DNA of 58,008 nucleotides, the filler included, from an uncultured Myxococcia bacterium (GTDB lineage Bacteria > CAZTWC01), in the NCBI GenBank assembly GCA_964617105.1. It is 3 parts of 3 records of this genome, joined end to end, with 100 filler letters (N's around TTAATTAATTAA, not from the genome) between each part and the next. Parts side by side here need not be neighbours in the genome. Positions count along the whole stretch, not along the records: positions 1 to 19,557 come from CAZTWC010000038.1; 2 more parts are not named here. The stretch is one strand, 5' to 3'. The notes under the pieces were generated by a model that saw only the letters and a list, made by a program, of their open reading frames with translations, had not been told where the DNA came from and did no database searches. The position numbers were made by a program, and so were the translations under genes. Below, piece by piece: positions 1 to 19,557 of the stretch (position 1 is the first letter of the stretch; each line of letters begins with the position of its first letter).

Positions 1-2
1 AA

Positions 3-1040: not shown

Positions 1041-1049
1041 TATCAACAA

Positions 1050-1967: not shown

Positions 1968-1975
1968 ACTGTTCT

Positions 1976-2761: not shown

Positions 2762-2765
2762 AGTA

Positions 2766-3218
2766 TTATCCTTTCACTTGTTCTGCTGCCTCCATCACCC
2801 TTTGATACCCGGTGCAGCGGCATAAATTACCGGAGATGGCAGTGGCCACCTCAAGCCGGTCAGGGTGGGGATTCTGTATAAATAGGGCTTTTAAGGAAAT
2901 CACCAATCCGGGAGTGCAAAAGCCACACTGAACCGCTCCCTGGTCAATAAAAGCCTGTTGAAGCACATCCAGTTTTTCGCCATTACTTATCCCCTCGATA
3001 GTGATAATCTCTGCCCCCTCCACCTGGCTGGCCATCACCAGACAGGAGTTTACCGCCAGACTATTAATAAGCACTGTGCAGGCTCCACACTCCCCTTTTC
3101 CACATCCCTCTTTGGTGCCAATCAAGCCAAACTTCTGGCGCAATAGATCCACCAACCGCAAGTCATACTCCAACTCCACTACCTTTTGCTCACCGTTTAT
3201 GCTAAAATTTATTTCCAA
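2766..3218 (-). CDS. Xanthine dehydrogenase-family 2x[2Fe-2S] subunit
   Basis: GTKEGCGKGECGACTV, VNSC, QCGFCTPG, GNLCRCTGY; TTG start. Confidence 0.95.
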   Translation of the reverse strand: MEINFSINGEQKVVELEYDLRLVDLLRQKFGLIGTKEGCGKGECGACTVLINSLAVNSCLVMASQVEGAEIITIEGISNGEKLDVLQQAFIDQGAVQCGFCTPGLVISLKALFIQNPHPDRLEVATAISGNLCRCTGYQRVMEAAEQVKG

Positions 3219-3253
3219 TTTTTATCTCAACTTTCGATCTAACCAAGAACTAA

Positions 3254-5581
3254 TTACTCTTCATTTAAATTGGCCAGAGCGGCCAGCATTCTCTCCGGGG
3301 TGGCCGGGATGGTGGTCAGCCTGACGCCGGTAGCGTGATAAATGGCATTGGTAATAGCAGGCGCTACTCCCATCAAAGGTTGTTCACCAAAACCTTTGGC
3401 CCCGTAAGGCCCCTGTTCAAAAGCACTTTCTACTATCAGCGGCTCCACCTGTGGCGCATCCAAAGATGATGGGATTATATAGGTAGAAAAATTGGTATTT
3501 TGCATCTCTCCCGCCGGATTGTGCAAAATCTCCTCCATAGTGCCGTACCCAGCACCTTGAACTGTGCCCCCCTGAATCTGCGCCTCCACCTGGTCTGGAT
3601 TTATGGCCTTACCTACATCGTGGGCAGCAATAACTTTTATTACCTTTACTTCGCCGCTTTGGGTATTTACCTCAACTTCAGCGATATTGGTAGCCCAGGC
3701 ATAAGTCATGTAAGCCTTGCCCCGGCCAGTTTCAGCATTCCAGTCCATTGACGGCACTTTGAACCAGCCGTGTCCTGACAACTGCCGTTTCTTTTCAGCA
3801 CAGCCTTTTATCACCTGGCTGATTTTTATCCCTGGTTGCCTACTATCTTTAAAAACCATCTCCTGTCCCCGGATCTCCAACTCCTCTATAGCCACCCCGC
3901 CCAACATTATTGCTCCCTCCAGAAAAAGGGAATGTCGGATGGGCCGGCAAGCATCGATAAGAGCATTGCCCGATACGGTGGTGGCGCGGGAAGCTACTGT
4001 GGGACCGCTGTCTGGAACACGGGAGGTATCAGCCGGATCCATCCTTACATTGACATAATCTATCCCCAACTGCTGGGCTACTATTTGGCTTAACACCGTG
4101 GTCATCCCCTGGCCCATTTCGGTGGTGCCCACCGCAAAACTGGCGCTGCTGTCAAACTCTAACTGCACATATGCCCCCGCCCGGGAGAGCTTATGTCCTG
4201 CTGATCCAAGCCCAACTCCATAATAAATAGTGGAAATTCCTAATCCTTTTTGAATCCATTTCGGTTTTTTTTTGGTTTTATCGCAACTGTTATCCTGTCT
4301 GGCATTGTCCTGTTCAAAGAGCCGACGCCGCTGATTCCAATCCGACTTCTCCAGCGCCTTTTCTAAAGTTTCGCCAATGCCTACGCTGCTTTCCAGTTGC
4401 TGGCCAGACCCGGTAAAGTCGCCTGATTTGAGGATATTAAGCCGTCTGATCTCAGCCGGATCCATCCCCAACTTAGCAGCCAACATATCCATGGCCGACT
4501 CCACGGCAAACAGGATTTGGGGAGAGCCAAAACCGCGAAAAGCGCCGCAAGGCACTTTGTTGGTGGCAACAGCATAGGATTTAAGCCACACATTGGGTAC
4601 CTGGTAAGATCCAAAAGCGTGGATAGTTCCTCGCCAGAGCACCACCGGACTTAGGGTGCTGTAGGCGCCGGCATCCAAAATGTAGGTCACCTGAGCGGCC
4701 AGCAATTTTCCCTGCCCATCGGCAGCCAGGCGGTAACGAATATGACCTGGATGGCGTTTACTCATGGATACCATATCCTCTTCCCGGGTATAGATCAATT
4801 TCACCGGCCGGCCGGTGTGCCAGGCTGCCAACGCCGCCTGGGACGCCACTAGCGAAGGAACATCCTCCTTACCGCCAAAAGCGCCGCCCGTAGTGGTCTG
4901 TATCACCTTAACCCGGCTCAATTTCATCCCCAAAACCTCGGCAACCCCTTCCCGCACATAAAAGGGACACTGCATAGAGCCATAAATCTCTATTCCGGTG
5001 GCGCCAGGCACCGCCACCATTCCCTGAGGCTCCAGGTAGGCATGCTCTTGGTATGGGGTGTGAAATTCGGCCTGCACTACGGCAGCCGCCTCCCCAAAAG
5101 CGCTATCCACATCACCGTATTGGTTGTGATATTTACTAAAAATATTATCCTGGCCGTAAATTTTGGGGGCATCTTTTGCCATGCCCAGCTCGGCATCCAA
5201 CACCGCCTCCATAGGTTTACACCGCACCACCACCTTTTGAGCGGCAAAACGCGCCATATCCCTGGTGGTAGCCGCTACCACCGCCACCGGCTCACCACAA
5301 TATCTGACCTCTTTTTCTGCCAGGCAGGGTTGATCGCGCAGTACAACCGGCACAATATTGCACCCAGGTATATCAACGGCGGTAAAAACCCCTTTTACCT
5401 GAGATAATTCATCAAGAGCCGAACTATCCAGACCCTCTATAACTCCCCGGGCCACCGGGCTTCTTACCACGGCAGCATATAATTGCCCGCTAAAAGAGAT
5501 ATCATCAATAAACAAAGCCTGGCCCCGCACTTTGGCTTTGGCATCGGTTCTGGGCAACCGGGATCCCACAAATTCGGACAT
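3254..5581 (-). CDS. Xanthine dehydrogenase-family molybdopterin-binding subunit
   Basis: QEHAYLEP, GGAFGGK, AFRGFG, EMGQG, TVASR, AKGFGE (catalytic Glu retained); substrate not determinable from motifs. Confidence 0.93.
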   Translation of the reverse strand: MSEFVGSRLPRTDAKAKVRGQALFIDDISFSGQLYAAVVRSPVARGVIEGLDSSALDELSQVKGVFTAVDIPGCNIVPVVLRDQPCLAEKEVRYCGEPVAVVAATTRDMARFAAQKVVVRCKPMEAVLDAELGMAKDAPKIYGQDNIFSKYHNQYGDVDSAFGEAAAVVQAEFHTPYQEHAYLEPQGMVAVPGATGIEIYGSMQCPFYVREGVAEVLGMKLSRVKVIQTTTGGAFGGKEDVPSLVASQAALAAWHTGRPVKLIYTREEDMVSMSKRHPGHIRYRLAADGQGKLLAAQVTYILDAGAYSTLSPVVLWRGTIHAFGSYQVPNVWLKSYAVATNKVPCGAFRGFGSPQILFAVESAMDMLAAKLGMDPAEIRRLNILKSGDFTGSGQQLESSVGIGETLEKALEKSDWNQRRRLFEQDNARQDNSCDKTKKKPKWIQKGLGISTIYYGVGLGSAGHKLSRAGAYVQLEFDSSASFAVGTTEMGQGMTTVLSQIVAQQLGIDYVNVRMDPADTSRVPDSGPTVASRATTVSGNALIDACRPIRHSLFLEGAIMLGGVAIEELEIRGQEMVFKDSRQPGIKISQVIKGCAEKKRQLSGHGWFKVPSMDWNAETGRGKAYMTYAWATNIAEVEVNTQSGEVKVIKVIAAHDVGKAINPDQVEAQIQGGTVQGAGYGTMEEILHNPAGEMQNTNFSTYIIPSSLDAPQVEPLIVESAFEQGPYGAKGFGEQPLMGVAPAITNAIYHATGVRLTTIPATPERMLAALANLNEE

Positions 5582-5591
5582 CTTTAAACTC

Positions 5592-6920
5592 CTAAAAATT
5601 TTCCCAAATTTCAGTGGCCAACTCGGTGGCCCTGGCTGCCAGCCTGGGCTGGTCTATATCTATCTTTAATTGCCTATCTTTCATGAGTACTTTACCGCCA
5701 CAGATGGTGGTGTTGACAAAGGACTGAGAAAGACCAAAGGCCAGATGTCCCATAAAGGAATTACTATCAAAAGGAGTAGGGGAAAAATAATCTATTAGGA
5801 TAATATCAGCAGCATTTCCCTCTTTTAATTGCCCCAGTCCTATATCCCAATATTTATTGGCAATAACCGCGTTGTTGACCAGCAGAGTGTTCAAGGATTC
5901 ACAAAATCCCTTCGAAGGGTTGTTTTTCTCCAGGTGATGTAGCCACAGGGCCGCCCTGACCTCCTCCATCATGTTGACTGTCATGGCATCGGTGCCCAGG
6001 CCAACGCAAAGTCCCTTTTCAGTCATGCCGATAATATCGGCTATACCCACGGCGTTGTTGGTGTTGGATTGGGGATTGTGCACCACCGCACTACCGCTTT
6101 TTTGGATTAACTCCATCTCCGATTGGTCAATATGGACACAGTGGGCAGTAATCGACTTTGGTCCCAACAGGCCAAACTTATCCAGCCGCTCTACCACCCT
6201 GATGCCATAATTTTTCAGACTGTATTCCTGATCAGACAAGGCCTCTGCTGTATGGATATGGAAACCGGTATCCAACCCCTGAGCCGCCTCTCTGACGGCT
6301 TGCAGGGTTTTATCACTCAGGGTAAAGGCGGCATGTAAGCCAAAAAGCCCCCGTAAATAGGGGTCATTTTCAGTTTGACATCTACGCAAAAAATCAACAT
6401 TTTCCTGGATCCCATCCTGGGCCACCTTCTCTCCATCACGATCAGAAACCTCGTAACATAGGCTAGCCCTTATCCCCACCTCTTTGACCGCTTTGGCGAT
6501 AATATTCAGAGAACCACGGACCGCTCCCGGGCTGGCGTGGTGGTCGATAATAGTGGTGGTTCCTCTGCTGACGGCATCGATTAAGGGCAGCATGGCGCTG
6601 ACATAACAACCTTCCAGAGTTAGCAATTTATCCAATTTCCACCAGAGGTTATTTAGCACTTCCACAAAGTTGGTAGATGGTTGAATTTTATAGAGCCCCC
6701 GGGCCAGGCTGCTGTAAAAATGCATGTGAGCGTTGATAAAACCGGGCATAACCACTTTACCCCCGGCATCTATAATCTGTTGGTAGGAGCCGGTAAAATC
6801 GGAATCTGGTCTAATTTTACTGATTTTATCTTCCTCAATCAACAGAGAATGCCCGTTAAGCACTTGATTTTCCAGACCTAAGGTGACAATAGTACCGTTT
6901 TTTATTAAAATGTCAGTCAT
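5592..6920 (-). CDS. ssnA: SsnA-family putative aminohydrolase (amidohydrolase superfamily)
   Basis: PGFINAHMHFYSSLARG, WWKLD, GTTTIIDHHASP, GLHAAFTLSD, HNPQSNTNNAVG, LGTD. Confidence 0.9.
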   Translation of the reverse strand: MTDILIKNGTIVTLGLENQVLNGHSLLIEEDKISKIRPDSDFTGSYQQIIDAGGKVVMPGFINAHMHFYSSLARGLYKIQPSTNFVEVLNNLWWKLDKLLTLEGCYVSAMLPLIDAVSRGTTTIIDHHASPGAVRGSLNIIAKAVKEVGIRASLCYEVSDRDGEKVAQDGIQENVDFLRRCQTENDPYLRGLFGLHAAFTLSDKTLQAVREAAQGLDTGFHIHTAEALSDQEYSLKNYGIRVVERLDKFGLLGPKSITAHCVHIDQSEMELIQKSGSAVVHNPQSNTNNAVGIADIIGMTEKGLCVGLGTDAMTVNMMEEVRAALWLHHLEKNNPSKGFCESLNTLLVNNAVIANKYWDIGLGQLKEGNAADIILIDYFSPTPFDSNSFMGHLAFGLSQSFVNTTICGGKVLMKDRQLKIDIDQPRLAARATELATEIWENF

Positions 6921-6984
6921 TATTCTTTATCCTTCCTGATTCGGTTCTACTATTTCACGGGAACTCATAAATTGATTAACAGGC

Positions 6985-9505
6985 TCAATCCTCCCGTAAG
7001 GCCGCTTTTTCAGCAGCATCTCTCTGGCGCATATAGAGAGCGCCAGACACACATTTTTTTACGCATATAGAGCAGCCAATGCATCGGGAAGGATCGGTTT
7101 TAGGTATTTTATCATTATCCAAAGATACCGCCAAATAGGGACAGCGGGTGCAGTTGCCGCAAGAGATGCATAGATCTCCATTAACACAGGATACTTTTTT
7201 GTCTGCCGGTAACTCCATAAAGTCAGCAATGGGGTTGGGTAAGGCTCTACCTATCAACTGGGATACCGACTCAATGCCCCGCTGCTGGAGAAGGTGACTG
7301 AGGCCGGAGCACAACTCGTGGATAATATCATACCCATATTTCATGGCCAAAGTGCAAAACTGCACGGTGCTGGCGCCCAAAGCCAGGAAATTGGCCGCAG
7401 CCAGATAATCCATGGGACCGCCGTTTCCGGAAATGGTCACGCCCAGAGGGGCGGCATTGGCCAGGGTCATGTAACTGATGGGGGTAATGCCGTCACCGCT
7501 CATCCCAACCACGATCCCCGGGTCCCACCCAGGTTGACCGCTATCGCCAGCTCCCTTGTCATCTCTACGAAAGGCCAGGCTGGGAAAAGAGTTAGCCAGG
7601 GTAACACCGGCCTTTTTATCAGGAAAACCGGCCAGGGTTTGGTTAACCGCCATTATAATCGGCTTAATGGAGGTCACCGCCCCGGTCATCTTGAACAGTT
7701 TAGGTACCTGGGGTTGGGAGGCTTCCATTATCCAGCCAATAATTTTGGCAGTCAAAGCAGCATTCTGGGAGACAATATCTCCTTCGGTGCCGTCCCCGCC
7801 CTGAGGACAAGAGAGACTGTATTCAATACTCATGGCGCCGGCGTCTTCCAACATTCTGGTATTCTCTTGCCAGATTTGTCTATCGGCCTGGTCGTCACCG
7901 GTCACCGGACCGCCGGTAGACGCTATGGTCAGCCGGTCTGGGTATTTTTCCACCAACTGTTCCACCTCCCGGCAAATCCGATCTAGAGGATGTCCTGAGA
8001 CATTATCGCAATTAGCATAGGTCAGCCGGTNNNNNNNNNNGAATATGGATGGGTAATCCGTTAAAAGCGGTTTTCATAACCCCACCGGCCCAACCGGCCT
8101 GATAGGCCTTCTCCATCTGCTCCAAGCCGTCAGTGGGCGGAGCGGCAGAAAGTAAAAAGGGCGAAATCAGAGCCCGGCCGAAATAATCGGTTTCCAAATC
8201 CACCGGAACCTGGTGGTAACCGGGTATGGTAAAAGTGCTTTTAATATTGCTATCTTCTGGTTTGGAAGTATCTGGGGCAGTTTGCTGCAAAGCGGCGGAC
8301 AGTTTGATGGCCGCATTTTTACCAGAGGCCACCGCCTCCACCACAGTAGTGGGGCCATTGTGGCAGTCACCGGCATAGACTATATGTTCCTTGACGCTAT
8401 CAGATTGTTTAAGAGGCATATTTCTACTGCCAATAGCCACGATTATCAGGTCAATATCATCTCGCACCTGCACAGTGCCCTCTTGGTCACTAATTTTAGT
8501 CAAATCGAAACTATCACCATCTAACTCAATCCTTTTTAATTTGAGTCGGGAGATCTTATCATTGCTACTCTCTATGGAAACTAACTTGCAACGTCCGGTA
8601 ATCTCCACCCCGGCCAGGATAATCTCTTCCCGTTCATCCTGGGTCAAAGGCATCTCACCCGCTTTTTCCAAACAAACCATCTCCACTGAAGAGCACCCTA
8701 TACTGCTGGCAATCAACGCACAGTCAGCAGCGGTAGCGCCGCCGCCAATCACCATAACTTTACCTGAAGCCTGGTCTGTGCCCAGATGTTTTTTTGGCCG
8801 GGCTAAAAAATCGAGTCCGCTCACAGTAGTCTCTTCACCGGGGATGCCCAATTTTATTGGCGCCATTAGGCCGGTGGCCGCCACCACTCCATTATAGCCC
8901 TGGGTAAAAAAATCACTTAGATCTTGTATAGCCTGTTGAGTAAATAGGTTTATCCCATCCAGGGAGAGAATAAACTCCAAATCTCTGTCCAACACCTCTT
9001 GGGGAAGCCTTTGGGAGGGGATAATATTGCACATCCCGCCAGCGGTTTCTCCCTGTTCATAAATATCAACTTGAAAGCCCAACTGAACCAGGCTGGCAGC
9101 AGCCGCCAGGCCGGCCGGGCCAGCCCCCGCTATGGCCACTTTTTGACCGTTTTTCTTCCTGGCCATAAAATTGGGAGTCTGTCCTATTTGGCTGGCTTTT
9201 TCAATGATAGTCATTTGCACCGATGGGATATCCACCGGCTGGTTAAGTTTCTTATACACACAGGCGCTCATGCAGTGTTGGTCGGGACATACCGCCCCGC
9301 ACACTCCTCCCAGAGGATTGCAACTTAAAATCATGGCCGCCGCCCTCTTCAGGTCAGCCGGCTCCATTTTTCTGGCCGCCATGATAAAATCAGCCGGACT
9401 GCAGTGAGCCGGACATTTATCCTGGCACGGTTTCTCCTGGCAATATTCACACTTCTCCATCTCCTGACGCAATTGTGCATCGCTTAATAGACCTTTTTTC
9501 AACAT
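6985..9505 (-). CDS. Single-chain dihydropyrimidine dehydrogenase-like flavo-Fe-S oxidoreductase (PreT-like + PreA-like + 2x[4Fe-4S]); one gene interrupted by the 10-N gap at 8031-8040
   Basis: N-terminal CEYC/PCQDKCP/CGAVCP Fe-S motifs and GAGPAG, GGGATAADC nucleotide motifs run into the FMN-barrel start SPFLLSAAPP...GGVMKT. The downstream frame is open up to the gap (RLTYANCDNVSGHPLDRICREVEQ), then SLSCP, GNGG and two ferredoxin-type Cys clusters. Confidence 0.85.
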
Positions 9506-9520
9506 AATTTTTTTGTCACC

Positions 9521-11338
9521 TTATTTTCTTTCTTGAACGCCATCCAATAGGCCAAAAGCGTTGGTATCCAATTCGGCGGCATTGGCTTCATCAGTATCCA
9601 AATGCATGGCCAGTTTGGCTTTGTCGCTTACTCGAACGTGAACTCCGCCAAATATAACTTCCCGCTCTCCCGGAATCTTGATCCGTACCACATCCTGGTT
9701 ACACAAACTGTATTTCTTGGCGTCTTCCGAAGTCATATGGATATGTCGTAAGGGACAAATAACCCCCTTTTCCATTTTTATCCTGTCCTCGTTGCCCTCC
9801 AACACAATACCGGGAGTATTGTCCAGTTCGCCGGAAAGCCTTAGCGGAGCATCGATACCAAGCCTGCACTCTTCGGTTCTGGTTATCTCCACCTGAGTTT
9901 TTTCCCGCACCGGCCCAATGATGCGGACATGAGGAATCATATCACGGGGGCCAATCAAGGTTACAGTTTCCTCGGCTACAAACTGTCCTGGTTGAGAAAT
10001 ATCCCTGGTTTTGGTAAGAGTATAACCTTGGCCAAAGAGTTTTTCCAAATCTTCCTGGCAGAGGTGGATGTGTTGATCAGCGGTGATAATCGGCACTTTA
10101 AACTCCTCTTGAACCCTGTCCTCGCTGGCCTGCTGATATCCAACCCGGGTGGCGGTTTCCCTGGCAATCATCAAATCTTCTCTGGTTTTGACCACCAAAA
10201 CCTTGGTCTTGGATGAATCGCTGTGAATCTCAAATATCCCACTGTTATTCGGATTCCGAAAAATATTTTTCATCTCATCCAGGGCCACTCCCATCAAATC
10301 TAATCCCTGACAAGTCCTGGCCCGGATTCCCTTGGAGTTTTCGCCAATACCGCCGGTAAAAATCAAAATATCCAGATGACCCAAAACCGCGGCATAGGCG
10401 CCGATATATTTTTTCAACCGGTAGCAAAAAATCTGGATAGCCAGCAGGGCCTGGTAATTACCATTGTTGGCCTCCTCCATAACCTGCCGTATATCGTTAC
10501 TTAAACCGGATATTCCAGTCAATCCGCTCTGTTTGTTTAACAGTTTGTCGGTTTCGTCTATTGACAGTCCCAACTGCTTTTGTAGAACCAGCACCAGGGC
10601 GGGATCGATATCTCCGCAGCGGGTTCCCATAATCAGTCCCTCCAAAGGTGTCAAACCCATGCTGGTGTCGATGGAGCGTCCCTTTTCGATAGCACAGATA
10701 CTGGCGCCATTGCCCAAATGACAACTTATTATATTCAGCTCGTTCATCTCCTTGCCCAGATATTCGGCGGCCTTGTTAGCCACATAGGCGTGTGAAGTGC
10801 CGTGAAAACCGTAGCGGCGAAAGCCATGATCCCGGTATAAGTTGTAGGGAATGCCGTAAACATAGGCCCTCGCTGGCATAGAGGAATGAAAGGCGGTATC
10901 AAAAACAGCCACATGAGGAATATTGGGCATCAATTCCTGGCAAGCATCAATACCAGCCAGATTGATGGGATTGTGCAAAGGAGCCAGGTCAATACACTTT
11001 TTAATTTGCTCTTTCACTTCCGGGGTAATCACTCTGGAACTGGTCATCTTTTCACCGCCGTGCACTACCCGATGGCCCACTGCCTGAATCTCCTCCAGGT
11101 TGCTCAGAACGGGATTATCCTTCGCCACCAGGTTATTCAGGGCAAGTCTAACCGCTGCCAGGTGGTCTTTTACCTCTTTCACTTCCTTAACGGTCTGAAC
11201 ATCTTTCATAAAGGTATGGGCGCTGTCTTTCTGGCCGATATTTTCCACCAACCCTCCAGCCAGTTTTTCCCCTTCCTGGACATTGATGAGATCATATTTC
11301 AACGATGAACTTCCGCAATTAATTATTAGTATTATCAT
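9521..11338 (-). CDS. ackA: Acetate/propionate kinase fused to a C-terminal PduL-type phosphotransacylase
   Basis: AckA motifs NCGSSSLK, HRVVHGG, APLHN, FDTAFH, YGFHGTSH, CHLGNGAS, TGGIGEN. Last ~191 aa (9524-10096) carry PduL motifs HIHL, SQPGQF, QVEI, RHIHM, MHLDTDEANAA. AAGGAG RBS precedes ATG 11338. Confidence 0.92.
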   Translation of the reverse strand: MIILIINCGSSSLKYDLINVQEGEKLAGGLVENIGQKDSAHTFMKDVQTVKEVKEVKDHLAAVRLALNNLVAKDNPVLSNLEEIQAVGHRVVHGGEKMTSSRVITPEVKEQIKKCIDLAPLHNPINLAGIDACQELMPNIPHVAVFDTAFHSSMPARAYVYGIPYNLYRDHGFRRYGFHGTSHAYVANKAAEYLGKEMNELNIISCHLGNGASICAIEKGRSIDTSMGLTPLEGLIMGTRCGDIDPALVLVLQKQLGLSIDETDKLLNKQSGLTGISGLSNDIRQVMEEANNGNYQALLAIQIFCYRLKKYIGAYAAVLGHLDILIFTGGIGENSKGIRARTCQGLDLMGVALDEMKNIFRNPNNSGIFEIHSDSSKTKVLVVKTREDLMIARETATRVGYQQASEDRVQEEFKVPIITADQHIHLCQEDLEKLFGQGYTLTKTRDISQPGQFVAEETVTLIGPRDMIPHVRIIGPVREKTQVEITRTEECRLGIDAPLRLSGELDNTPGIVLEGNEDRIKMEKGVICPLRHIHMTSEDAKKYSLCNQDVVRIKIPGEREVIFGGVHVRVSDKAKLAMHLDTDEANAAELDTNAFGLLDGVQERK

Positions 11339-12416
11339 GGGCAACTCCTTTTATGTTTTCTATGAACCATTTTTCAAACTCTGGATTAAAATAGATCACT
11401 CTCTGTTTCTTGAATTCCCTGGTACTCAGACATATCCTATAATTGGTTTGGCCCGAAGCCGCAGTCATATGCTCCACGATCGCCTCCAGATCTTCCCTGC
11501 TCCTGGCGTGAATCATAGTGTAAAGTTGGTAGGGCCACTGTGGGAATGAATTTCTTATATAACAATGACTTACCGGTTTATAAGAGGAAAACTTGCGCCC
11601 CAGATTGTCCAGATCTTTATCATCCACCTGCCAGGTCACCATGCCGTTAAATAGAAAACCACTTTTCCGGTGGTCCAATATGGCAGAAATGCGGCGCAAA
11701 ATCCCCTTTTCCTGCATCACTTGAAGCCGCTTAACCAACTCATCCTGGCTGATACCAAGGGTAGTGGCCGCCTCTTTAAAGGGATAGCGCACAAGTTGTA
11801 TCTCTTTTTGGACTTGACAGATTATCTGCCGGTCCAACTGGTCATAACTACGTTTGATAGCATCATCTCTGACCCCCCCTTGATCCTGGTTAATTTCAAG
11901 ATCCTGATCTTTCTCCCCTTTCTCCCGGTTCTTAAGATCTAGCACCACCCCGATTTTAAAACGTTTTATGGTTTTGAACAGAAGCAGATCTTGGCAGAGG
12001 GGCTGAGCACGAAAATACTCAGTTACCGCTTCAAAAGAAAGACCCGGAGGGACTGCCAGAGTAAACCACAATTGATAGGGAACATCCCTCTGGTAATTGT
12101 GGCTGACACCAGGGCAACGATTTATAATATGAGACATCTCCTCTTCCTGGCCGGGTTTCACTTTCATGGCCAGCAGGGAGCTAGAAAAGCCCATGGCGGT
12201 GGTGTCGAATATGGCAGAAAATTTACGGATAATGCCCGCTTTTTTAAAATACTCTATGGCTTGCCACACATCTTCCACCGACAGATTCAATTGACGGGCA
12301 ATTACCTGGAAAAGATGTTTATCAATGGGCTGAGGTCGTTGAAGATGGTCGAGAATTCTGACCTCTTTTTGAGTCAACATTTGCCGTCGAGTGAGCATCG
12401 GATTAGAAGTTGCCAT
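11319..12416 (-). CDS. Fused siroheme decarboxylase AhbA/AhbB (NirDL-like, two Lrp/AsnC-like halves)
   Basis: First half VSHNYQRD..LWFTL..FKIGV; second half VSHCYIRN..WPYQLYTMIHAR..STREFKK. Confidence 0.88.
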   Translation of the reverse strand: MATSNPMLTRRQMLTQKEVRILDHLQRPQPIDKHLFQVIARQLNLSVEDVWQAIEYFKKAGIIRKFSAIFDTTAMGFSSSLLAMKVKPGQEEEMSHIINRCPGVSHNYQRDVPYQLWFTLAVPPGLSFEAVTEYFRAQPLCQDLLLFKTIKRFKIGVVLDLKNREKGEKDQDLEINQDQGGVRDDAIKRSYDQLDRQIICQVQKEIQLVRYPFKEAATTLGISQDELVKRLQVMQEKGILRRISAILDHRKSGFLFNGMVTWQVDDKDLDNLGRKFSSYKPVSHCYIRNSFPQWPYQLYTMIHARSREDLEAIVEHMTAASGQTNYRICLSTREFKKQRVIYFNPEFEKWFIENIKGVAHDNTNN

Positions 12417-12446
12417 TTACTTGCTCGAAAAAGAACCAGATTTGGT

Positions 12447-13400
12447 TTAGTTATTTAAAATTTTATCAATTTTTTCCGGTGCCCATGATTGCCCGGTAAG
12501 ACGGCAATAGGATAAACAACGCTCCTGGATCTGCTCCCGGTTTAGAGAGGTTATCCCCTCCAGGCTAAAATGTTCCACATTGAAAGAAGCCAATACTGTA
12601 CCAAAAATAGTGGCCAATTGAATATCCTGGAAAGAGAGGGCCTGTTGTCGTTCATATAAAAGGGACAAAACCCCCATGGTGCCACCAGCAAAAGTATCTC
12701 CCGCTCCGGTGGGATCCACCACCTCTTGCAAAGGATAGGCTGGAGCGATATATAGGTAATCCTTATACTTTATGATCAGTCCATATTCCCCTCGCTTAAC
12801 AACCAATATTTCCGGTCCCATCTGCTGAACCTTTTTAATGGCCCTGAAGATATTGTCTACATTGCTCAACATCCTCACTTCCCCATCGTTGATAACCAAC
12901 ATATTTACCTGTTTTAAAACTCGGGATAATTCTTTAGGGGTGCCCTGTATCCAAAAATTCATGGTATCAATGGCCACAAATTTAGCGCCTCCGGCCTGTT
13001 TCACTACTGTTTCTTGTAGAGAGGGGTGAATGTTGGCCAAAAACAACACCGGTATCTGACTATCAACCTGGGAGAGACGGGGTTTAAAATCTTGAAAAAC
13101 ATTTAATTCAGTGGTAATAGTTTCCGCCTGGTTCATATCGCCACTGTATTTGCCTTCCCAAAAAAAGGTTTTTCCTTCAGCCAGTACTTCCAAACTATCC
13201 AGGTTAACCCCTTTTGAACTTAACAAATCAATATGTTTTTTAGGAAAATCTTCCCCTACCACCGCCACCACCTTAGACTGAGTAAAATAGGAGGAGGCCA
13301 CTGAAAAATAGGAGGCAGAACCTCCCAGGCACCTCTCCCGTTTACCAAAAGGTGTTTCAACCGTATCCAGGGCTACCGAACCTACAACTAATAAGGGCAT
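12447..13400 (-). CDS. PfkB/ribokinase-family sugar or nucleoside kinase
   Basis: VGSVALD, LGGSASY, DTMNFWI, VKRGEYG, DPTGAGDTFAGG; start taken at MPLLVVG. Confidence 0.9.
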   Translation of the reverse strand: MPLLVVGSVALDTVETPFGKRERCLGGSASYFSVASSYFTQSKVVAVVGEDFPKKHIDLLSSKGVNLDSLEVLAEGKTFFWEGKYSGDMNQAETITTELNVFQDFKPRLSQVDSQIPVLFLANIHPSLQETVVKQAGGAKFVAIDTMNFWIQGTPKELSRVLKQVNMLVINDGEVRMLSNVDNIFRAIKKVQQMGPEILVVKRGEYGLIIKYKDYLYIAPAYPLQEVVDPTGAGDTFAGGTMGVLSLLYERQQALSFQDIQLATIFGTVLASFNVEHFSLEGITSLNREQIQERCLSYCRLTGQSWAPEKIDKILNN

Positions 13401-13560
13401 GGTTTTTTCTCCTATAACTAAGACAACCGCGACAACCGCCAGATTTTCCATATTACATTTTATTATTTATTAAACTAGTTAATTTAAACAGGGAAATTTA
13501 TCAAAGTCAAATTAATTCAGACTGATACAGCAGGCTGGTTGCGGATCTGAGCCTTTCAAC

Positions 13561-13589
13561 TTGACAATTGTGGAATAAGGGGATATTTT
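13561..13589 (+). promoter_or_regulatory. Putative sigma70 promoter for the cytochrome/porin genes
   Basis: TTGACA (13561-66), 17-bp spacer, TATTTT (13584-89); same -10 hexamer as the putative groES promoter. Confidence 0.5.
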
Positions 13590-13596
13590 ACCTCCT

Positions 13597-14496
13597 ATGA
13601 ATAATAGAGATGTTACAATCTACCGGATAATAAAATCAGGCTGGAAAATAGGCTTAAAAGCCCTTCTGTTTCTACTTTTTGTTACTTTTCTGTCTGTATG
13701 CGGCGATTTGCGCAACTTTCAGGATAAATCTGCCAATCGTGGAGAAAACGACTGCGCCTATTGCCATTACAACATCATGCCTCACGAGCCCCAGCCCTCC
13801 CATTGCGGAAAGGACTTGTGCCAGACCGATTGCCGGCCCAACTATTCCCATTGCGGTGATGATTGCCCCGATTGTCCCTGTGATTGCAAAAAAGAGGACG
13901 ACCTTCACAAAACCCATCTGGTCGAAGGTAATTTAACTACCCGTCTCCAGTGTCAAGACTGCCACCTTACACCTAAGCGCTGGGATGATATCGGACATTT
14001 GGATTCTCCTGCTCCAGCAGAGGTGGTATTCAGTTCAAAAGCCTCACGAGGCGGTCTAAATCCGACTTATACCAATAAAACCTGCAACAATATCTACTGT
14101 CACGGCGCTTCTATTAAAGGAGGGGGCAATGGATCGCAGATGAAATGGCAGGACTCTAAAAGTTTGCAATGCTCCTCCTGTCACGGCAATCCACCATCGG
14201 GACACCTGGAAAAAGTCAATAATTGCCAGGCTTGTCATCGCCTCAGTTTTCAGAACAACGACCTGGACAAAAAACGGCACATAAACGGCCGGGTGGAGAT
14301 GGTTCCTTTTGATTTTGAAACCGACACTCCCAACTGTGGAACCTGTCACAGTCTACCTCCCAATAACCAGCATACACCCGCCACAAAAGATTGTTCCCAG
14401 TGCCACCCCAAATATCCGCTCTACGACCCTGGCAAAGAGGATAAATCCAGCCAGTGGTCCACCCACATGAACGGAAAAATAGAGATAGTAAAATGA
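13597..14496 (+). CDS. Multiheme c-type cytochrome, CxxxxCH/CxxCH (Geobacter-type) domain; probable lipoprotein
   Basis: Six CxxCH (CAYCH, CQDCH, CSSCH, CQACH, CGTCH, CSQCH) plus CNNIYCH; HING/HMNG motifs; hydrophobic stretch ending LSVC. Confidence 0.9.
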   Translation: MNNRDVTIYRIIKSGWKIGLKALLFLLFVTFLSVCGDLRNFQDKSANRGENDCAYCHYNIMPHEPQPSHCGKDLCQTDCRPNYSHCGDDCPDCPCDCKKEDDLHKTHLVEGNLTTRLQCQDCHLTPKRWDDIGHLDSPAPAEVVFSSKASRGGLNPTYTNKTCNNIYCHGASIKGGGNGSQMKWQDSKSLQCSSCHGNPPSGHLEKVNNCQACHRLSFQNNDLDKKRHINGRVEMVPFDFETDTPNCGTCHSLPPNNQHTPATKDCSQCHPKYPLYDPGKEDKSSQWSTHMNGKIEIVK

Positions 14497-15830
14497 TAAA
14501 TAGACCCCCAAATTTCGCTTCAAAAAGGCGGACCGGCTGGAAAGTTTTCTGGTCGTTTTTTCAATCTCTGGTTGCTTTGTCAATAATCCTGGCAATTTTA
14601 TCAACCTGGTATTCACAGGCCTGGAGTACGGAATTATCTGCCCAAACCACCAGTTTTTTGCAGTTCAGGGCTGAAGACTATGAAAACCAGGTGACCCACC
14701 GAATCCCTTTTTGCCAGTATCTCAATCTCTACGGAATGGATTTAGCCGGGGCCCAGGGGCTGTCAATAGCCATTGGCGGGTGGGGGATGTACGACCTTTA
14801 CCAGTGGCGAACCAAAGATCGGGCTGATGGTGATCTTAATTTTGGCTATCTGGACTACCAGTTCATTGACGGGGTCTCTCTGCGCCTGGGTAGGCAATTT
14901 ATCTACGAAAGGGCTTCCCTGGTCAAACAGGTTGATGGACTGCGGCTGCAAATTAACGGCCTGGGCGGTTTTGGACTCAGCCTGTTTGGCGGAAATGTTT
15001 CACCGCCCCGATTCGATTACAGCCACAAATTTGGCCAGGATGATTACCTGGCCGGTGGACGTCTTTACTACCGGATGTTGGACATAGGACAGTTTGGTAT
15101 CTCCGCTGCGGTAACCACAGATGAAGGTTTTGTGTCTCGCGCCGATCTGGGGGTCGACTTTTCCCTGCGCTCATATAGATATTTTAACTGGGCCGTCCTG
15201 GAGGGCAGCGCCCTTATGGATGCTCCAGGCAAGCAATTAGCAGAATTAAATACCGTTATTCATCTCTACCCCCACCAGAATTTAGTCCTGGATATGGGTG
15301 TGAATCATTCCAAAATCGGCGCTTTGCTGCCCAAAACCTCTATTTTTTCGATATTTGCCGCCGACAATTACACCAAAGCCTATTTGGCTTTGAATTATCA
15401 GGCTTTGACCTTTCTCAACACCGGCCTGGAGGCCAGTCAAAGTTTCTTTGACCATGGCGAAAACGGATATGCGGCTGGTTTCCACTCGACCCTATACCTG
15501 GATCCCAAAAAACAAGATATGTTGGGAGTTAAACTATTTCGGGTCAAAGAGAAAACCAACGCCTTTTGGCGATTACGCAGTTTCTGCCTGTTCAATTTCA
15601 TCAACACCCTGTACACCACTTTTGAGTTGGAGGGGCTGATATTCGACCATAACCTACGGAACCAGTCTTATTCCTTAAGCAGTTATGGTTCCCTGGGCGC
15701 CCGTTTAGGGCCAGTTGAGTTGGCGGGTGAAATCGGAGTTTCCTCCAATCCAATTTTTGAACGGGAACTCTACGGAATGTTAAAATTGAGCCTGAACCGA
15801 CAAGTAAACTATTCAACTGCATCAAAGTGA
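14493..15830 (+). CDS. Putative outer-membrane beta-barrel (porin of a porin-cytochrome complex)
   Basis: Signal peptide (..SQAWS), LRLGRQF..VDGL motif, alternating aromatic/aliphatic strands; overlaps both flanking cytochrome genes by 4 nt. Confidence 0.7.
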   Translation: MINRPPNFASKRRTGWKVFWSFFQSLVALSIILAILSTWYSQAWSTELSAQTTSFLQFRAEDYENQVTHRIPFCQYLNLYGMDLAGAQGLSIAIGGWGMYDLYQWRTKDRADGDLNFGYLDYQFIDGVSLRLGRQFIYERASLVKQVDGLRLQINGLGGFGLSLFGGNVSPPRFDYSHKFGQDDYLAGGRLYYRMLDIGQFGISAAVTTDEGFVSRADLGVDFSLRSYRYFNWAVLEGSALMDAPGKQLAELNTVIHLYPHQNLVLDMGVNHSKIGALLPKTSIFSIFAADNYTKAYLALNYQALTFLNTGLEASQSFFDHGENGYAAGFHSTLYLDPKKQDMLGVKLFRVKEKTNAFWRLRSFCLFNFINTLYTTFELEGLIFDHNLRNQSYSLSSYGSLGARLGPVELAGEIGVSSNPIFERELYGMLKLSLNRQVNYSTASK

Positions 15831-16903
15831 ACAACAATATCATGGCAAAATATAGAGTTACCGTTCTTTTGCTGGCTTTTTTGGCGATTATTTTACTTTT
15901 TGCGGCCTGCCGCTATTTTGTGGATAAATCGGATCAGATAATTTTTTCCCACCAGACCCATCTGGACCAGGGGAAGGAGTGTCAAAACTGCCATAGCGAA
16001 ATAGAGGAAGCCACCTCCCTGAATACCAGTTTTTTACCCAAAAAGGCTACCTGCGAGCGGTGCCATCTAGAGGTTATGAATAAGTGCGAAAGGTGTCACA
16101 CCAACCCTCAACAGGCATCCACCTATCTGGTGCGAGAGCACAAGTTAAACTTCTCCCACCAAAAACATTTAAAAACCGAAAACTCCGCCAAAGAGAAAAT
16201 AAAAGGTAAATCGCAGTGTCTGGTCTGCCACCAACAGGCCGCTACTTCTAACAGCCACCATCTGGCTGGTCATCAGGAGTGCAGCGGTTGTCACCAGGAA
16301 AGGCTGGACAAATTAAACTGCTCTGCCTGCCACATAGACCTGCACCGTTATACCAAAAAACCAACCCGGTTCTTCAGTCACAAAGGTAATTTCAGTCGTA
16401 ATCACGGTCAGATGGCCAAATCTGGTTCCGATGTTTGCCGCCAGTGCCATCATACAGGTTTTTGTTCTGACTGCCACAGCCAGCGGGATAATCTCAGACC
16501 CTCGGTTAAAAATCGGGGAAAAATGGAAAGTAATTTTATTCATAGAATGGATTGGTTGTCCCGCCACAGCGTAGAAGCCAGATTAGACCCTAATTACTGC
16601 TCCAAATGTCACGGCAGCAGCAGTTGTCAGGATTGTCATACCCATCACGGCATCGCTCCCAACTCCGAAAAGAAATTCAACAACCATCCCCAGGGTTGGG
16701 TAACACTTCATGGCTCAGCCGCCAGGCGGAATATAGTCAGTTGCGCCGCCTGCCATGACCAGGGTGCGGCCAGCAATTGTGTCCGCTGCCACAAAAGCGG
16801 CAGTATAGGCGGTAATCCGCATCCACCGGGCTGGGACAGTTCTATCAACCAATCTAACCGCCGGATGTGCAACATCTGCCATAAAGCAGGCATCGCCCCC
16901 TAG
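15827..16903 (+). CDS. 13-heme c-type cytochrome lipoprotein (cytochrome c3/c7-like repeats)
   Basis: 13 CxxCH motifs counted; FSHxxH distal-ligand motifs; lipobox FAAC. Confidence 0.92.
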   Translation: MNNNIMAKYRVTVLLLAFLAIILLFAACRYFVDKSDQIIFSHQTHLDQGKECQNCHSEIEEATSLNTSFLPKKATCERCHLEVMNKCERCHTNPQQASTYLVREHKLNFSHQKHLKTENSAKEKIKGKSQCLVCHQQAATSNSHHLAGHQECSGCHQERLDKLNCSACHIDLHRYTKKPTRFFSHKGNFSRNHGQMAKSGSDVCRQCHHTGFCSDCHSQRDNLRPSVKNRGKMESNFIHRMDWLSRHSVEARLDPNYCSKCHGSSSCQDCHTHHGIAPNSEKKFNNHPQGWVTLHGSAARRNIVSCAACHDQGAASNCVRCHKSGSIGGNPHPPGWDSSINQSNRRMCNICHKAGIAP

Positions 16904-16914
16904 AAGATGCGCTG

Positions 16915-18690
16915 CTATCGTTGCCCGCCCCCTCCTGGAAACTCTTGGCAGAGTTGCAACACCTGCGCAGCCTTCTCCTGATTGAGAGCCTGATTGGCCA
17001 GCCGGACGGCATCTTTAATGGATATTCGGGAGATCAACTCTTTTATTCTGGGCAAGGCTTGCAAATTGACGCTAAAAGTGTCCAAACCCAGCCCTAACAG
17101 CAGGGGGCAGTACTCCTCCCGGGCCGCCATCTCTCCACAGAGAGAAACTTCTATGCCCGCCCGGTTCCCGTTTTCTATCACCTGTTTTAAAACTCGTAAA
17201 ACCGCCGGATGGTGAGGGAGATAAAGATCTGCCATCTTTTCTTCGGAACGGTCTACCGCCAACAGGTATTGAACCAGATCGTTGGTGCCAATACTGAAAA
17301 AATCGGTGCGGGCGGCTAAAATATCGCTCACCACTGTGGCTGAAGGCACTTCGATCATTACTCCCACTTTTACCTGCCGGTTGAACTCCTTACCCTGAAC
17401 AATCAACTCTCCCTTCACTTCCTCAATGATCTCTCCTATCTTCTCAACCTCTTCCACCCCGGAAATCATGGGCAACATCAAACGCAAATCCCCCTGGGTA
17501 GAAGCCCGAAGAATTGCTCTCAGTTGATTCTTGAACATCTCTTTAAACTTAGAATGTAAAGGATTATCTGCCGGCAGCAAGTAAAGACGAACAGCCCGCA
17601 GGTCAAGGGCTGGATTCTCCGCCTCTTTCTGATCGGAACTCAATTTGTCACCACCCAGGTCAAAAGTACGAACTATCACCGGATGGGGAGATACCGCCGC
17701 CACCACCCGACAGTAATCTCTATAGAGATGTTCCACAGAGATTGAATATTCATCTCTGGTGTTCATATATTGATATTCGGTCCTATACAGACCAATACCA
17801 TCTGCCGCTTGGAGCAAAGGATCCTCCAGTTGCTGTAAAAGTTCTATATTGGCCCTGAGAAATATCCGTTTTCCATCTTTACTGTGAGTTTTATCTTCTT
17901 TCCTGGTTCCAGTACCGTTTATAACCGTCCTTTTCAAATTGTTTTTCTGTCTCCGCCTATAACTTTCCAAACTAGCCCGATCTGGACTACAAACTAAAAG
18001 CCCTTGCTGGCAGTCTACAATCAAATGCTCCCCATCCTGCACCTGGGAAGAGAGACCCGCATCTCCTTTCAACAGAGGTAGTCCCATAGCCCTGGTCAGA
18101 ATAGCCACGTGGGAAGTGGGACCGCACTTTTCCAGAACAAATCCGCCCGCCCGGCCTTCAATCAGGTTCACCGCATCCAAGGGTAGGAGTCGAGTCGCAA
18201 TGATCACTTTCCCCTGGGAGGAAAGGGTGGTAAAATTAACCTCATTTTCCTGACCTAAGAGCGCGGAAAAAATTTGCTGGAAAATATCCTTGACATCATC
18301 CCAACGCTCCTGGAAATAATCACTGTCCGATTCTAAAAAAATCTGCTGGTATTTTGCCCGGGCTTTTGATAGAGCCCACTCGGCATTGATCCCGTCCTGA
18401 TGTACTATATCCACCGTCTCCTGCAAAAAAGCCTGATCTTTTAACATCATCCCCTGAATGGCGACAATCTCCTGCAACTCAGTTTGGATTTTACTATGGG
18501 TGATTTTTTGCTGGCGGTTTTCAAACCAAGTGGATGCCTGAGCAAAGGCTTTCTCCAGCCTCTGGCTCTCCAGTGAAGATTGATTTTTATCTATATGTTT
18601 CTGAAGAAAAGTGAAGTCGGCTTGCTCAAAATAAAGGGCATCGCCTATAGCGATACCCGGGCTAATGGTAGTACCGGAGATGGTTTTCAT
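16915..18690 (-). CDS. ptsI: PEP-protein phosphotransferase (PTS enzyme I)
   Basis: TSHVAIL phospho-His, GIGLYRTE, RTFDLGGDK, MIEVPS, FSIGTNDL, CGEMA. Confidence 0.95.
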   Translation of the reverse strand: MKTISGTTISPGIAIGDALYFEQADFTFLQKHIDKNQSSLESQRLEKAFAQASTWFENRQQKITHSKIQTELQEIVAIQGMMLKDQAFLQETVDIVHQDGINAEWALSKARAKYQQIFLESDSDYFQERWDDVKDIFQQIFSALLGQENEVNFTTLSSQGKVIIATRLLPLDAVNLIEGRAGGFVLEKCGPTSHVAILTRAMGLPLLKGDAGLSSQVQDGEHLIVDCQQGLLVCSPDRASLESYRRRQKNNLKRTVINGTGTRKEDKTHSKDGKRIFLRANIELLQQLEDPLLQAADGIGLYRTEYQYMNTRDEYSISVEHLYRDYCRVVAAVSPHPVIVRTFDLGGDKLSSDQKEAENPALDLRAVRLYLLPADNPLHSKFKEMFKNQLRAILRASTQGDLRLMLPMISGVEEVEKIGEIIEEVKGELIVQGKEFNRQVKVGVMIEVPSATVVSDILAARTDFFSIGTNDLVQYLLAVDRSEEKMADLYLPHHPAVLRVLKQVIENGNRAGIEVSLCGEMAAREEYCPLLLGLGLDTFSVNLQALPRIKELISRISIKDAVRLANQALNQEKAAQVLQLCQEFPGGGGQR

Positions 18691-18965
18691 TTGGTTACTT
18701 CTTCACCAATACCATCAACAATAAATTTGTATATCGCGTTCATGGCGTCTTGACAGTCCTCACCCCTGGTTTCGATGGATATGGTTTTGTCCAGCACATT
18801 GGCGCCAATATGTAAGACGCCCATTATACTCCTGCCGTTGACTCGAATATTATCCCGGCAAAAAGTTATGTCCGATTTGTATTTGCTTACCAGGTTTACC
18901 AATTTGGATGCTGCTCGTCCATGAAGTCCAAGTTCATTGGTAATTTTAAAACTTTTCTTAACCAT
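18687..18965 (-). CDS. ptsH: HPr-family phosphocarrier
   Basis: GLHGRAAS (His15 equivalent) and GRSIMGVL (Ser46 equivalent). Confidence 0.9.
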   Translation of the reverse strand: MVKKSFKITNELGLHGRAASKLVNLVSKYKSDITFCRDNIRVNGRSIMGVLHIGANVLDKTISIETRGEDCQDAMNAIYKFIVDGIGEEVTK

Positions 18966-18992
18966 TTTATTACCTCTTTTGCTCCACGGGAA

Positions 18993-19400
18993 TTATTTTT
19001 TTAACAAACGGCCGGCAGATACTATATTTTTCTTCCCATATTCTTCCAGCATTTGTGCCATTTCACCGAGAGTTAGTTCATTATTTTTACTACGACAGGT
19101 TGAGAGTTTGATCAGCAGGGGTAAATTAACCCCTGCCACAATATCAATTTTCCCCTCTTCTAAAAAACTGAGGCTGACATTACCCACGCTGCCCCCGAAC
19201 AGATCGTTTAGAATCAAAATTCCATCTCCGCTGTCAACCGATTTAATGGCTTTTTCAATTGCATCAGTTATCTTTCCGGGAGATGTATCCAGCGCGATGG
19301 AAACCGCAGTTATGCCTTCCATCTTGCCAACTATTAACTCCGCAGTTTTTAGCAAAATCTCGGCTAATCCATTGTGGGTAGCTATTACAACACCAATCAT
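18993..19400 (-). CDS. PTS mannose/fructose-family EIIA component
   Basis: MIGVVIATH, DLFGGS, AGVNLPLL. Confidence 0.9.
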   Translation of the reverse strand: MIGVVIATHNGLAEILLKTAELIVGKMEGITAVSIALDTSPGKITDAIEKAIKSVDSGDGILILNDLFGGSVGNVSLSFLEEGKIDIVAGVNLPLLIKLSTCRSKNNELTLGEMAQMLEEYGKKNIVSAGRLLKK

Positions 19401-19557
19401 AACTAAAATCTCTGTAACAAAAGTCACCAGATCTTTAAGTGCACTAACCGCAGGTGAGCAATTAAGAATATTTCTAATTAATGTTGCTGAATTTTTTTTT
19501 GTATGAAAATTATAGTTTTCATTAAGATAACCACTGTAAATTGTATTTGACCAAAAA

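Follow-up and report, generated by a model that had tools for sequence, protein, structure and literature searches.

Does a run of three genes from an uncultured Myxococcia bacterium (GenBank assembly GCA_964617105.1) encode a route for electrons across the outer membrane? The genes, here called A, B and C, are three plus-strand open reading frames (ORFs) at positions 13597-16903 of the window, a stretch of 58,008 nucleotides made of three parts of this genome joined end to end. Positions 1-19557 of the window are one contig (C38) of a 4.07-Mb, 489-contig assembly that is 96.5% complete and 3.35% contaminated. ORF calling and motif counts bear out the gene content given in a preliminary description of this DNA, namely a seven-motif cytochrome, an exported protein of about 445 residues and a cytochrome with 13 CxxCH motifs. 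To our knowledge, porin-cytochrome conduits are the sole Gram-negative route across the outer membrane that works without a diffusing carrier; we know of a solved structure only for the Mtr complex and of genetic support only for a few Geobacter clusters. Our analysis indicates that A, B and C probably constitute a porin-cytochrome complex of the Pcc type that carries electrons across the outer membrane. The locus would then be a known kind of system on a divergent branch and in an unusual host, and one more such cluster is unsurprising in itself.

The barrel and its predicted cytochrome partner

The middle protein, B, had been proposed to be a transmembrane barrel, and its AlphaFold2 model is of that type. 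Built from an eight-row alignment (predicted local distance difference test, pLDDT, 82.7; predicted template modelling score 0.70), the model runs from a signal helix (residues 12-39) into about 22 antiparallel strands over residues 46-441, and a plug domain is absent. The top Foldseek matches are all outer-membrane barrels: the FimD and PapC ushers, chitoporin, AlgE and Occ porins. A structural search aligned B with the FimD pore (Z 19.0, root-mean-square deviation 5.2, 335 residues aligned), with the 22-strand barrels of the TonB-dependent receptors FyuA (Z 18.7) and BtuB (Z 18.6) and, at rank 26, with MtrB (6r2q_B; Z 15.8, root-mean-square deviation 5.0, 336 residues aligned). If the mature N-terminus is periplasmic, as it usually is, the two long loops of the model (residues 170-184 and 274-292) would face outward and its short turns would lie on the periplasmic side.

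By sequence, B matched no Pfam family at E <= 0.1, and its only NCBIfam match, to YaiO, was sub-threshold (E 0.0038). A search of PDB sequences with the barrel profile gave weak LptD matches only (best E 0.0037), and a solved Pcc-type barrel was not found among them. The family itself is large: a profile search covering 1.84 billion representatives returned 1488 at E <= 0.001 and 504 at E <= 1e-30, where a word-indexed search found just eight relatives. The source names of the relatives from word-indexed searches are all 'hypothetical protein'. In a tree of 21 barrels, the window protein sits on a long, unresolved branch. Membership of B in the MtrB/PioB family (PF11854; also TIGR03509, which we take to be a model of this family) was considered and rejected: B has no such match, and among 55 members of the barrel family none matched an NCBIfam model and one gave a weak match to PF11854 (E 9.3e-5).

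We co-folded B (residues 44-445, 55-row alignment) with C (residues 28-358, 11-row alignment), with hemes left out of the model. The pair scored 0.82 in three runs, and the controls scored 0.01, 0.00 and 0.00. Of 157 solved complexes, 116 attained this mark, as did 2 of 215 mismatched pairs, counts that hold only roughly here because self-built alignments were used for the co-fold. Contacts agree between the runs to at least 89%, and the pLDDT of the partner does not fall below 71. On the barrel, the confident interface comprises 136 of 402 residues and touches 21 of the 22 strands in a lumen-facing i, i+2 pattern; it further includes the two long loops and several turns on the periplasmic side. 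In C, 99 residues belong to it, all within 149-351, and the approximately 120 N-terminal residues, which carry four heme motifs, remain outside the barrel. An interface of this kind is what a chain threaded end to end through the lumen would give, and residues 149-351 are predicted to form a heme wire inside B. Multimer prediction had been suggested in the preliminary description as a check on whether a heme chain passes through the barrel; in this heme-free model it places C in the barrel lumen with a score far above that of the best control.

Conserved pairing and the two cytochromes

The pairing of barrel and cytochrome recurs in distant genomes. When 40 genomes from other phyla, kin of the host at the domain level only, were searched with the barrel, eight gave a match, and in seven of these the barrel gene is immediately followed, in the same orientation, by that of a cytochrome with 5-13 CxxCH motifs; only the weakest barrel match (E 4.9e-5) departs from this. 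A pattern scan of species-representative genomes, based on a four-row alignment, gave ten more loci, all in metagenome-assembled genomes (MAGs) of 62-73% GC titled Deltaproteobacteria, Proteobacteria, Myxococcota, Polyangia, Myxococcales or Anaeromyxobacteraceae, with barrels 24-29% identical to B. In all ten the next gene downstream encodes a cytochrome, with 13 CxxCH motifs in eight loci, 12 in a ninth and 10 in the last, which brings the barrel-seeded total to 17 of 18 loci with a multiheme cytochrome in this position, 13 of the 17 with 13 CxxCH. In the nearest loci the partner is the same 13-heme lipoprotein of about 350 residues. The reverse test, seeded with C, found a barrel directly upstream in six of six new loci, and 13 of 20 genomes from the family of the Anaeromyxobacteraceae MAG hold one strong homologue of C. 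Every locus of the pattern scan also has a multiheme lipoprotein with CxxxxCH or CxxxCH modules, upstream of the barrel in seven and downstream in three; the window, with A upstream of the barrel, matches the seven.

C is 35-41% identical to ten homologues, and all 13 CxxCH motifs are kept in 10 of the 11 aligned rows, the eleventh of which looks frameshifted near its end. A Cys closes the N-terminal hydrophobic stretch (FAAC28 in C) in all 11 rows, which argues that the C family consists of lipoproteins. Among the candidates scored, this family numbers 760 clusters at E <= 1e-20. The 120 clusters listed are mostly about 340-370 residues long (range 327-512) and are named 'hypothetical', 'cytochrome c3 family' or 'cytochrome c7 and related'. 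The likeness of C to known proteins is limited to the first 60 or so mature residues, a c7-type triheme domain (Pfam Cytochrome_C7, E 6e-10). Residues 31-90 match ActA of alternative complex III (6f0k_A, E 2e-7; 6lod_A, E 3.3e-7), and there are sub-threshold matches to QrcA (26 bits against a cut-off of 180) and NrfH (15.2 bits against 134).

These N-terminal matches, together with the single helix that AlphaFold2 draws for residues 3-32 of C alone, would also suit a different arrangement, in which C, and perhaps A, is anchored in the inner membrane in a quinone-linked complex of the ActA, QrcA or NrfH type and B is an unrelated porin encoded between them. We regard this as very unlikely. The matches are confined to the c7-like domain and fall far under the family cut-offs, and no ActB/C, QrcB-D or NrfD-type gene was found beside the operon. 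The hydrophobic stretch of C closes with a lipobox Cys in 11 of 11 homologues, barrel and cytochrome adjoin in 17 of 18 barrel-seeded loci of distant genomes, and the co-fold puts C in the lumen with both unrelated-partner controls at or below 0.01. As a family assignment, ActA/QrcA was likewise rejected for C: the cut-off was not reached, the ActA match spans residues 31-90 only, and the partner genes are not in the flanks.

A contains the CxxxxCH/CxxCH domain TIGR01904 (44.6 bits against a cut-off of 27), for which 14 control genomes gave no match, as well as Pfam PF09698 (26.4 against 21.7) and Cytochrome_C7 (30 against 24.8); a search of PDB sequences with A returned no match. Its hydrophobic N-terminus ends in a lipobox-like LSVC35 and that of C in FAAC28, in agreement with the lipobox-like signals first noted for both cytochromes. 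A resembles a cytochrome encoded upstream of the barrel in one of the related loci (35% identity over 137 residues, E 2e-20), a protein of 238 residues with six CxxCH motifs and one CxxxxCH. The homologue aligns with A from residue 104 only and is without a cluster of eight non-heme Cys that A carries at residues 70, 75, 79, 86, 90, 93, 95 and 97. This cluster, which ends in CPDCPCDC, might bind a metal or form disulfides within a domain exposed at the surface. A may thus serve the conduit as a lipoprotein cytochrome, either at the surface or in an accessory role.

In the conduit that we favor, B would be the plugless sheath of about 22 strands, its lumen occupied by the C-terminal two thirds of C, in which hemes 5-13 would make up an insulated chain. 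Hemes 1-4 would belong to the c7-like domain of C, which lies beside the lipid anchor; this head would stick out at one face, most simply the periplasmic one, and trade electrons there with soluble cytochromes of the periplasm. A, a predicted 7-heme lipoprotein of the CxxxxCH/CxxCH type that characterizes Geobacter-like cytochromes of the outer surface, would bind at the opposite face and connect the chain, in either direction, with a partner outside the cell, for example a mineral, a metal chelate or a second cell. Because 13 hemes exceed the ten with which MtrA spans the membrane, B and C alone may suffice for the crossing, with A as an adaptor. Gene structure, heme motifs, barrel fold and the conserved gene pairing are shown by the analysis, and the place of C in the lumen is supported by a model; we infer the heme loading and lipidation of the cytochromes, the faces on which they lie, what A does, which way the electrons flow and what the substrate is.

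Several points weigh against this proposal: (i) Barrel residues conserved in the family are not significantly enriched at the interface with C (8 of 15, against 136 of 402 overall; one-sided Fisher p = 0.09). (ii) The solved MtrCAB complex (6R2Q) has the same kind of arrangement, so the heme-free co-fold may be recalling it and may pass partly by that likeness. (iii) Modeled alone, C is poor (pLDDT 46.9), and the shape of its heme chain is not checkable in that model. (iv) The N-terminal domain of C resembles the inner-membrane subunits ActA and QrcA. (v) C is a predicted lipoprotein, unlike the periplasmic OmaB and ExtA, and its topology may differ from the textbook one. (vi) The Val at position -1 of the A lipobox is atypical of the consensus. 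(vii) Neither a quinol dehydrogenase nor a regulator lies beside the operon, and nothing ties the operon to a respiratory chain. (viii) The public runs listed as carrying the sequence include no RNA run. (ix) A literature search found no experimental data for this exact branch of conduits.

What the conduit would serve can be approached through its neighborhoods. The nearest loci add only further multiheme cytochromes (4-heme, 30-heme or more of the Cx3-4CH type), and no catalytic subunit such as a molybdoenzyme or rhodanese lies in or beside the window operon. Both observations count against a conduit devoted to one particular terminal reductase, either extracellular or facing the periplasm, or to a soluble substrate (sulfur species, selenite or tellurite, or a dimethyl sulfoxide-type acceptor as in DmsEF) instead of minerals or electrodes, and we consider such a conduit unlikely. 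It would be in keeping with the finding of the sequence in marine and seawater metagenomes and with the link between Geobacter ExtHIJKL and selenite and tellurite reduction in the portion of PMC5877670 available. The excerpts of Shi et al. (2014; PMC4245776) likewise place pcc clusters in organisms other than reducers of solid Fe(III) or Mn(IV), among them respirers of elemental sulfur, selenate and nitrate and an anammox bacterium.

Gene layout, host genome and direction of flow

The coordinates of the operon and its surroundings are collected in Table 1. The three genes had been described as coupled by 4-nt overlaps. Both overlaps are present in the sequence, but B and C may not overlap as translated: in the alignment, the first Met of the ten C homologues pairs with Met6 of C (ATG 15842), so C may start there, 11 nt past the B stop codon. 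On this sequence comparison, translation likely begins at that ATG and not at the overlapping GTG. The reading frame of B is open from an upstream GTG at 14454. ORFs of at least 60 codons with three or more CxxCH motifs number only 15 in the 4.07-Mb genome, and the motif counts of A and C therefore exceed chance. Apart from one weak c7-domain match, A, B and C have no paralogues in the host genome. Both gene junctions are bridged with 0 differences by contigs assembled from other public DNA runs, which are marine or seawater metagenomes from two studies; some of them may be the source sample.

Table 1 Features of the operon and adjoining genes, in window positions
Feature	Position	Strand	Description
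Gene A	13597-14496	+	299 aa; 6 CxxCH + 1 CxxxxCH (C163-NNIY-CH) = 7 motifs
Gene B	14493-15830 (ATG 14493)	+	445 aa, exported; 0 heme motifs
Gene C	15827-16903 (GTG 15827)	+	358 aa from GTG; 13 CxxCH
A/B overlap	14493-14496	+	ATGA
B/C overlap	15827-15830	+	GTGA
Non-heme Cys cluster of A	13804-13887	+	8 Cys
Promoter-like site	13561-13589	+	TTGACA-17-TATTTT; 10/12 consensus matches; 7 nt before the A ATG
Siroheme decarboxylase-like fusion	11319-12416	-	two genes upstream of A
Acetate kinase fusion	9521-11344	-	607 aa

The promoter-like site before A is a consensus match only; six sigma-70-like sites were seen in the region, and 4.7 were expected from shuffles. If the promoter is real, its distance from the ATG would make the transcript of A leaderless or give it a very short leader. 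The bases before the ATG (ACCTCCT) are not a Shine-Dalgarno sequence. The site hints at a leaderless transcript, or it is a coincidence.

The genes upstream had been read as a divergent catabolic cluster that could feed the conduit. We found no evidence for such a link: the neighbors are a pfkB-family kinase, a siroheme-decarboxylase-like fusion and an acetate-kinase fusion. The second of these joins AsnC-type and NirDL-like domains as in siroheme decarboxylase AhbA/B and points to an alternative heme pathway; it adjoins an operon that needs 20 hemes per complex. The third combines an acetate kinase (residues 5-395) with a phosphate propanoyltransferase-type domain (PTAC, residues 421-592).

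The host genome has a GC content of 43.7%, and a phylum-limited search returned only this genome, which makes it the sole species of its phylum among the species searched. The Myxococcota-like host of the preliminary description is not borne out, as the relatives of B and C in Myxococcota MAGs (62-73% GC) are only 24-29% and 35-41% identical, respectively. What stands of the earlier interpretation is its core, a conduit with heme counts other than those of Mtr, as the best reading of the locus; its host affinity and its catabolic link are not supported. The operon and contig C38 both have 48.0% GC, with no difference in composition that would speak for horizontal transfer of the operon into the contig. 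The 95th percentile for bin contigs of at least 5 kb is 47.0%, and the assignment of the operon to this genome consequently rests on binning.

Elsewhere in the bin are genes for DsrMKJOP, DsrA, a 16-heme HmcA, TmcB/C-like proteins, an octaheme tetrathionate-reductase-type fusion and NapA. Flow outward to metal oxides and flow inward toward sulfur respiration are both conceivable. In the inward case the architecture would be the same and only the direction would differ: an extracellular donor (Fe(II), a mineral, a cathode-like surface or a partner cell) would supply periplasmic cytochromes and, through them, a Dsr/Hmc-type chain. We hold inward flow to be possible, if rather doubtful. DsrMKJOP, HmcA (511.9 bits against a cut-off of 400), the TmcB/C-like subunits and DsrA, which is above its cut-off, are in its favor. 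So are the excerpts of Murali et al. (2023; PMC10553843), in which inward flow through conduits (OetABI) is proposed for the sulfate-reducing partners of anaerobic methanotrophic archaea, and those of Shi et al. (2014; PMC4245776), in which the Mtr-type relatives PioAB and MtoAB work inward. However, heme wires are bidirectional in principle, so the sequence is silent on direction. AprA was looked for and not found in the 96.5%-complete bin, which speaks against assuming a full sulfate-reduction pathway, and the link between operon and Dsr depends on the binning of contig C38 described above.

A broader scheme, which we think improbable, would place B and C in a very large, unnamed family of two-component wires in which the threaded 13-heme cytochrome is a lipoprotein and A-like CxxxxCH lipoproteins are exchangeable surface adaptors; in this marine Dsr/Hmc host the wire would run inward, supporting respiration of sulfur compounds with electrons from particles or partner cells.

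Three other loci with multiheme cytochromes were noted in the host genome. On contig C156, an 8-heme ORF (4643-5611) is accompanied by a 645-residue exported protein for which neither Pfam nor NCBIfam gave a family, by a ferredoxin-flavoprotein oxidoreductase and by a 15-heme cytochrome cut off by the contig end. Together these genes may form a further conduit-like cluster. On contig C127 (3738-5776), a 455-residue exported protein is followed directly by a 4-heme cytochrome of 210 residues. The exported protein has no family and is not a relative of B, and the two could be another barrel-cytochrome pair. The third, on contig C20 (5037-13504), resembles alternative complex III and Qrc: it encodes a 7-heme cytochrome, an NrfD-type membrane protein, a TtrB/DsrO-like FeS protein and a PhsA/QrcB-like molybdopterin protein, together with a 446-residue protein of no known kind, a 6-heme cytochrome and a QmoC/HdrC-like protein. 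At this cluster, electrons might enter the periplasmic cytochrome pool from the inner membrane.

With its confident co-fold and compact size (about 800 residues in two genes), the B-C pair is a good target for structural work and heterologous expression. The barrel/13-heme family is large yet anonymous, its members being called 'hypothetical' or 'cytochrome c3/c7 family' among the outputs listed. The locus also extends possible extracellular electron exchange to a marine lineage without cultured or sequenced kin.

Comparison with known conduits

The co-fold of B and C resembles the arrangement of MtrA inside MtrB. A barrel-sheathed heme chain is common to the window proteins and to MtrCAB of Shewanella (6R2Q), and MtrB gave a Z of 15.8 to B; the solved MtrB has 26 strands, and MtrA is not lipid-anchored. 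The relatives of MtrCAB, namely MtoAB, PioAB and DmsEF, follow the same principle. In sequence the window proteins are not Mtr-like: B has no MtrB/PioB match and C no MtrA/DmsE match. A place for C in the MtrA/DmsE decaheme family was rejected, as TIGR03508 is not among its matches at E <= 0.1 and it has 13 CxxCH motifs against ten. The excerpts of Shi et al. (2014; PMC4245776) give MtrB 28 predicted transmembrane motifs, compared with about 22 strands in B.

The Geobacter complexes OmbB-OmaB-OmcB and ExtABCD/ExtEFG/ExtHIJKL, as described in the parts of PMC4282303 and PMC6148476 available, likewise combine a barrel, an inserted cytochrome and one or more lipoprotein cytochromes. Their barrels have 18-21 strands, and gene order varies among the clusters (PMC6148476). 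A shares with Geobacter the CxxxxCH/CxxCH domain TIGR01904. The heme counts differ: eight and 12 in OmaB and OmcB and 12, 5 and 12 in ExtA, ExtC and ExtD, according to these sources, against 13 and 7 in the window. The inserted cytochromes OmaB and ExtA are periplasmic in the excerpts of Shi et al. (2014) and Jimenez Otero et al. (2018). Whereas the Geobacter complexes have genetic and biochemical support, the window operon is likened to them by architecture, from genes and models. OetABI, compared here by its description in the excerpts of Murali et al. (2023; PMC10553843), unites a periplasmic cytochrome, a barrel and an extracellular lipoprotein cytochrome, also in a Dsr-bearing anaerobe; unlike in that system, OmcS, OmcX and Apc2a-type genes are not found beside the window operon.

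The Pcc class, as set out in the excerpts of Shi et al. (2014; PMC4245776), consists of a porin of 18-22 strands, an always-adjacent cytochrome with 5-14 hemes and, in most cases, an additional outer-membrane cytochrome, the only component for which these excerpts give atypical CX3-15CH motifs. The window operon fits this description, with about 22 strands in B, the adjacent 13-heme C and an extra CX4CH cytochrome in A. The same excerpts note that the 12-14-heme cytochromes of the class exceed the ten hemes of the membrane-spanning MtrA, and they list a cluster in Ignavibacterium album (IALB_1837-1839), which we count with group IV among the nearest counterparts of the window operon. Group IV of the class, from Anaeromyxobacter spp., pairs a porin with a 'periplasmic' cytochrome of 338-344 residues and 12-14 hemes, such as Adeh_3392, the abundance of which rose under Mn(IV) reduction.

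Relative to the Anaeromyxobacter clusters, the sequences are distant (24-29% identity in the barrel, 35-41% in C), the window adds an upstream 7-heme lipoprotein to what the excerpts of Shi et al. (2014) present as two-gene clusters, and C is a predicted lipoprotein where the equivalent component is periplasmic in that account. The nearest barrel relatives nevertheless come from Myxococcota and Anaeromyxobacteraceae MAGs, and the barrel/13-heme pairs found across the family of the Anaeromyxobacteraceae MAG are very probably group IV of Shi et al. Among the known systems, the operon is closest to the Anaeromyxobacter-type clusters and not to MtrAB.

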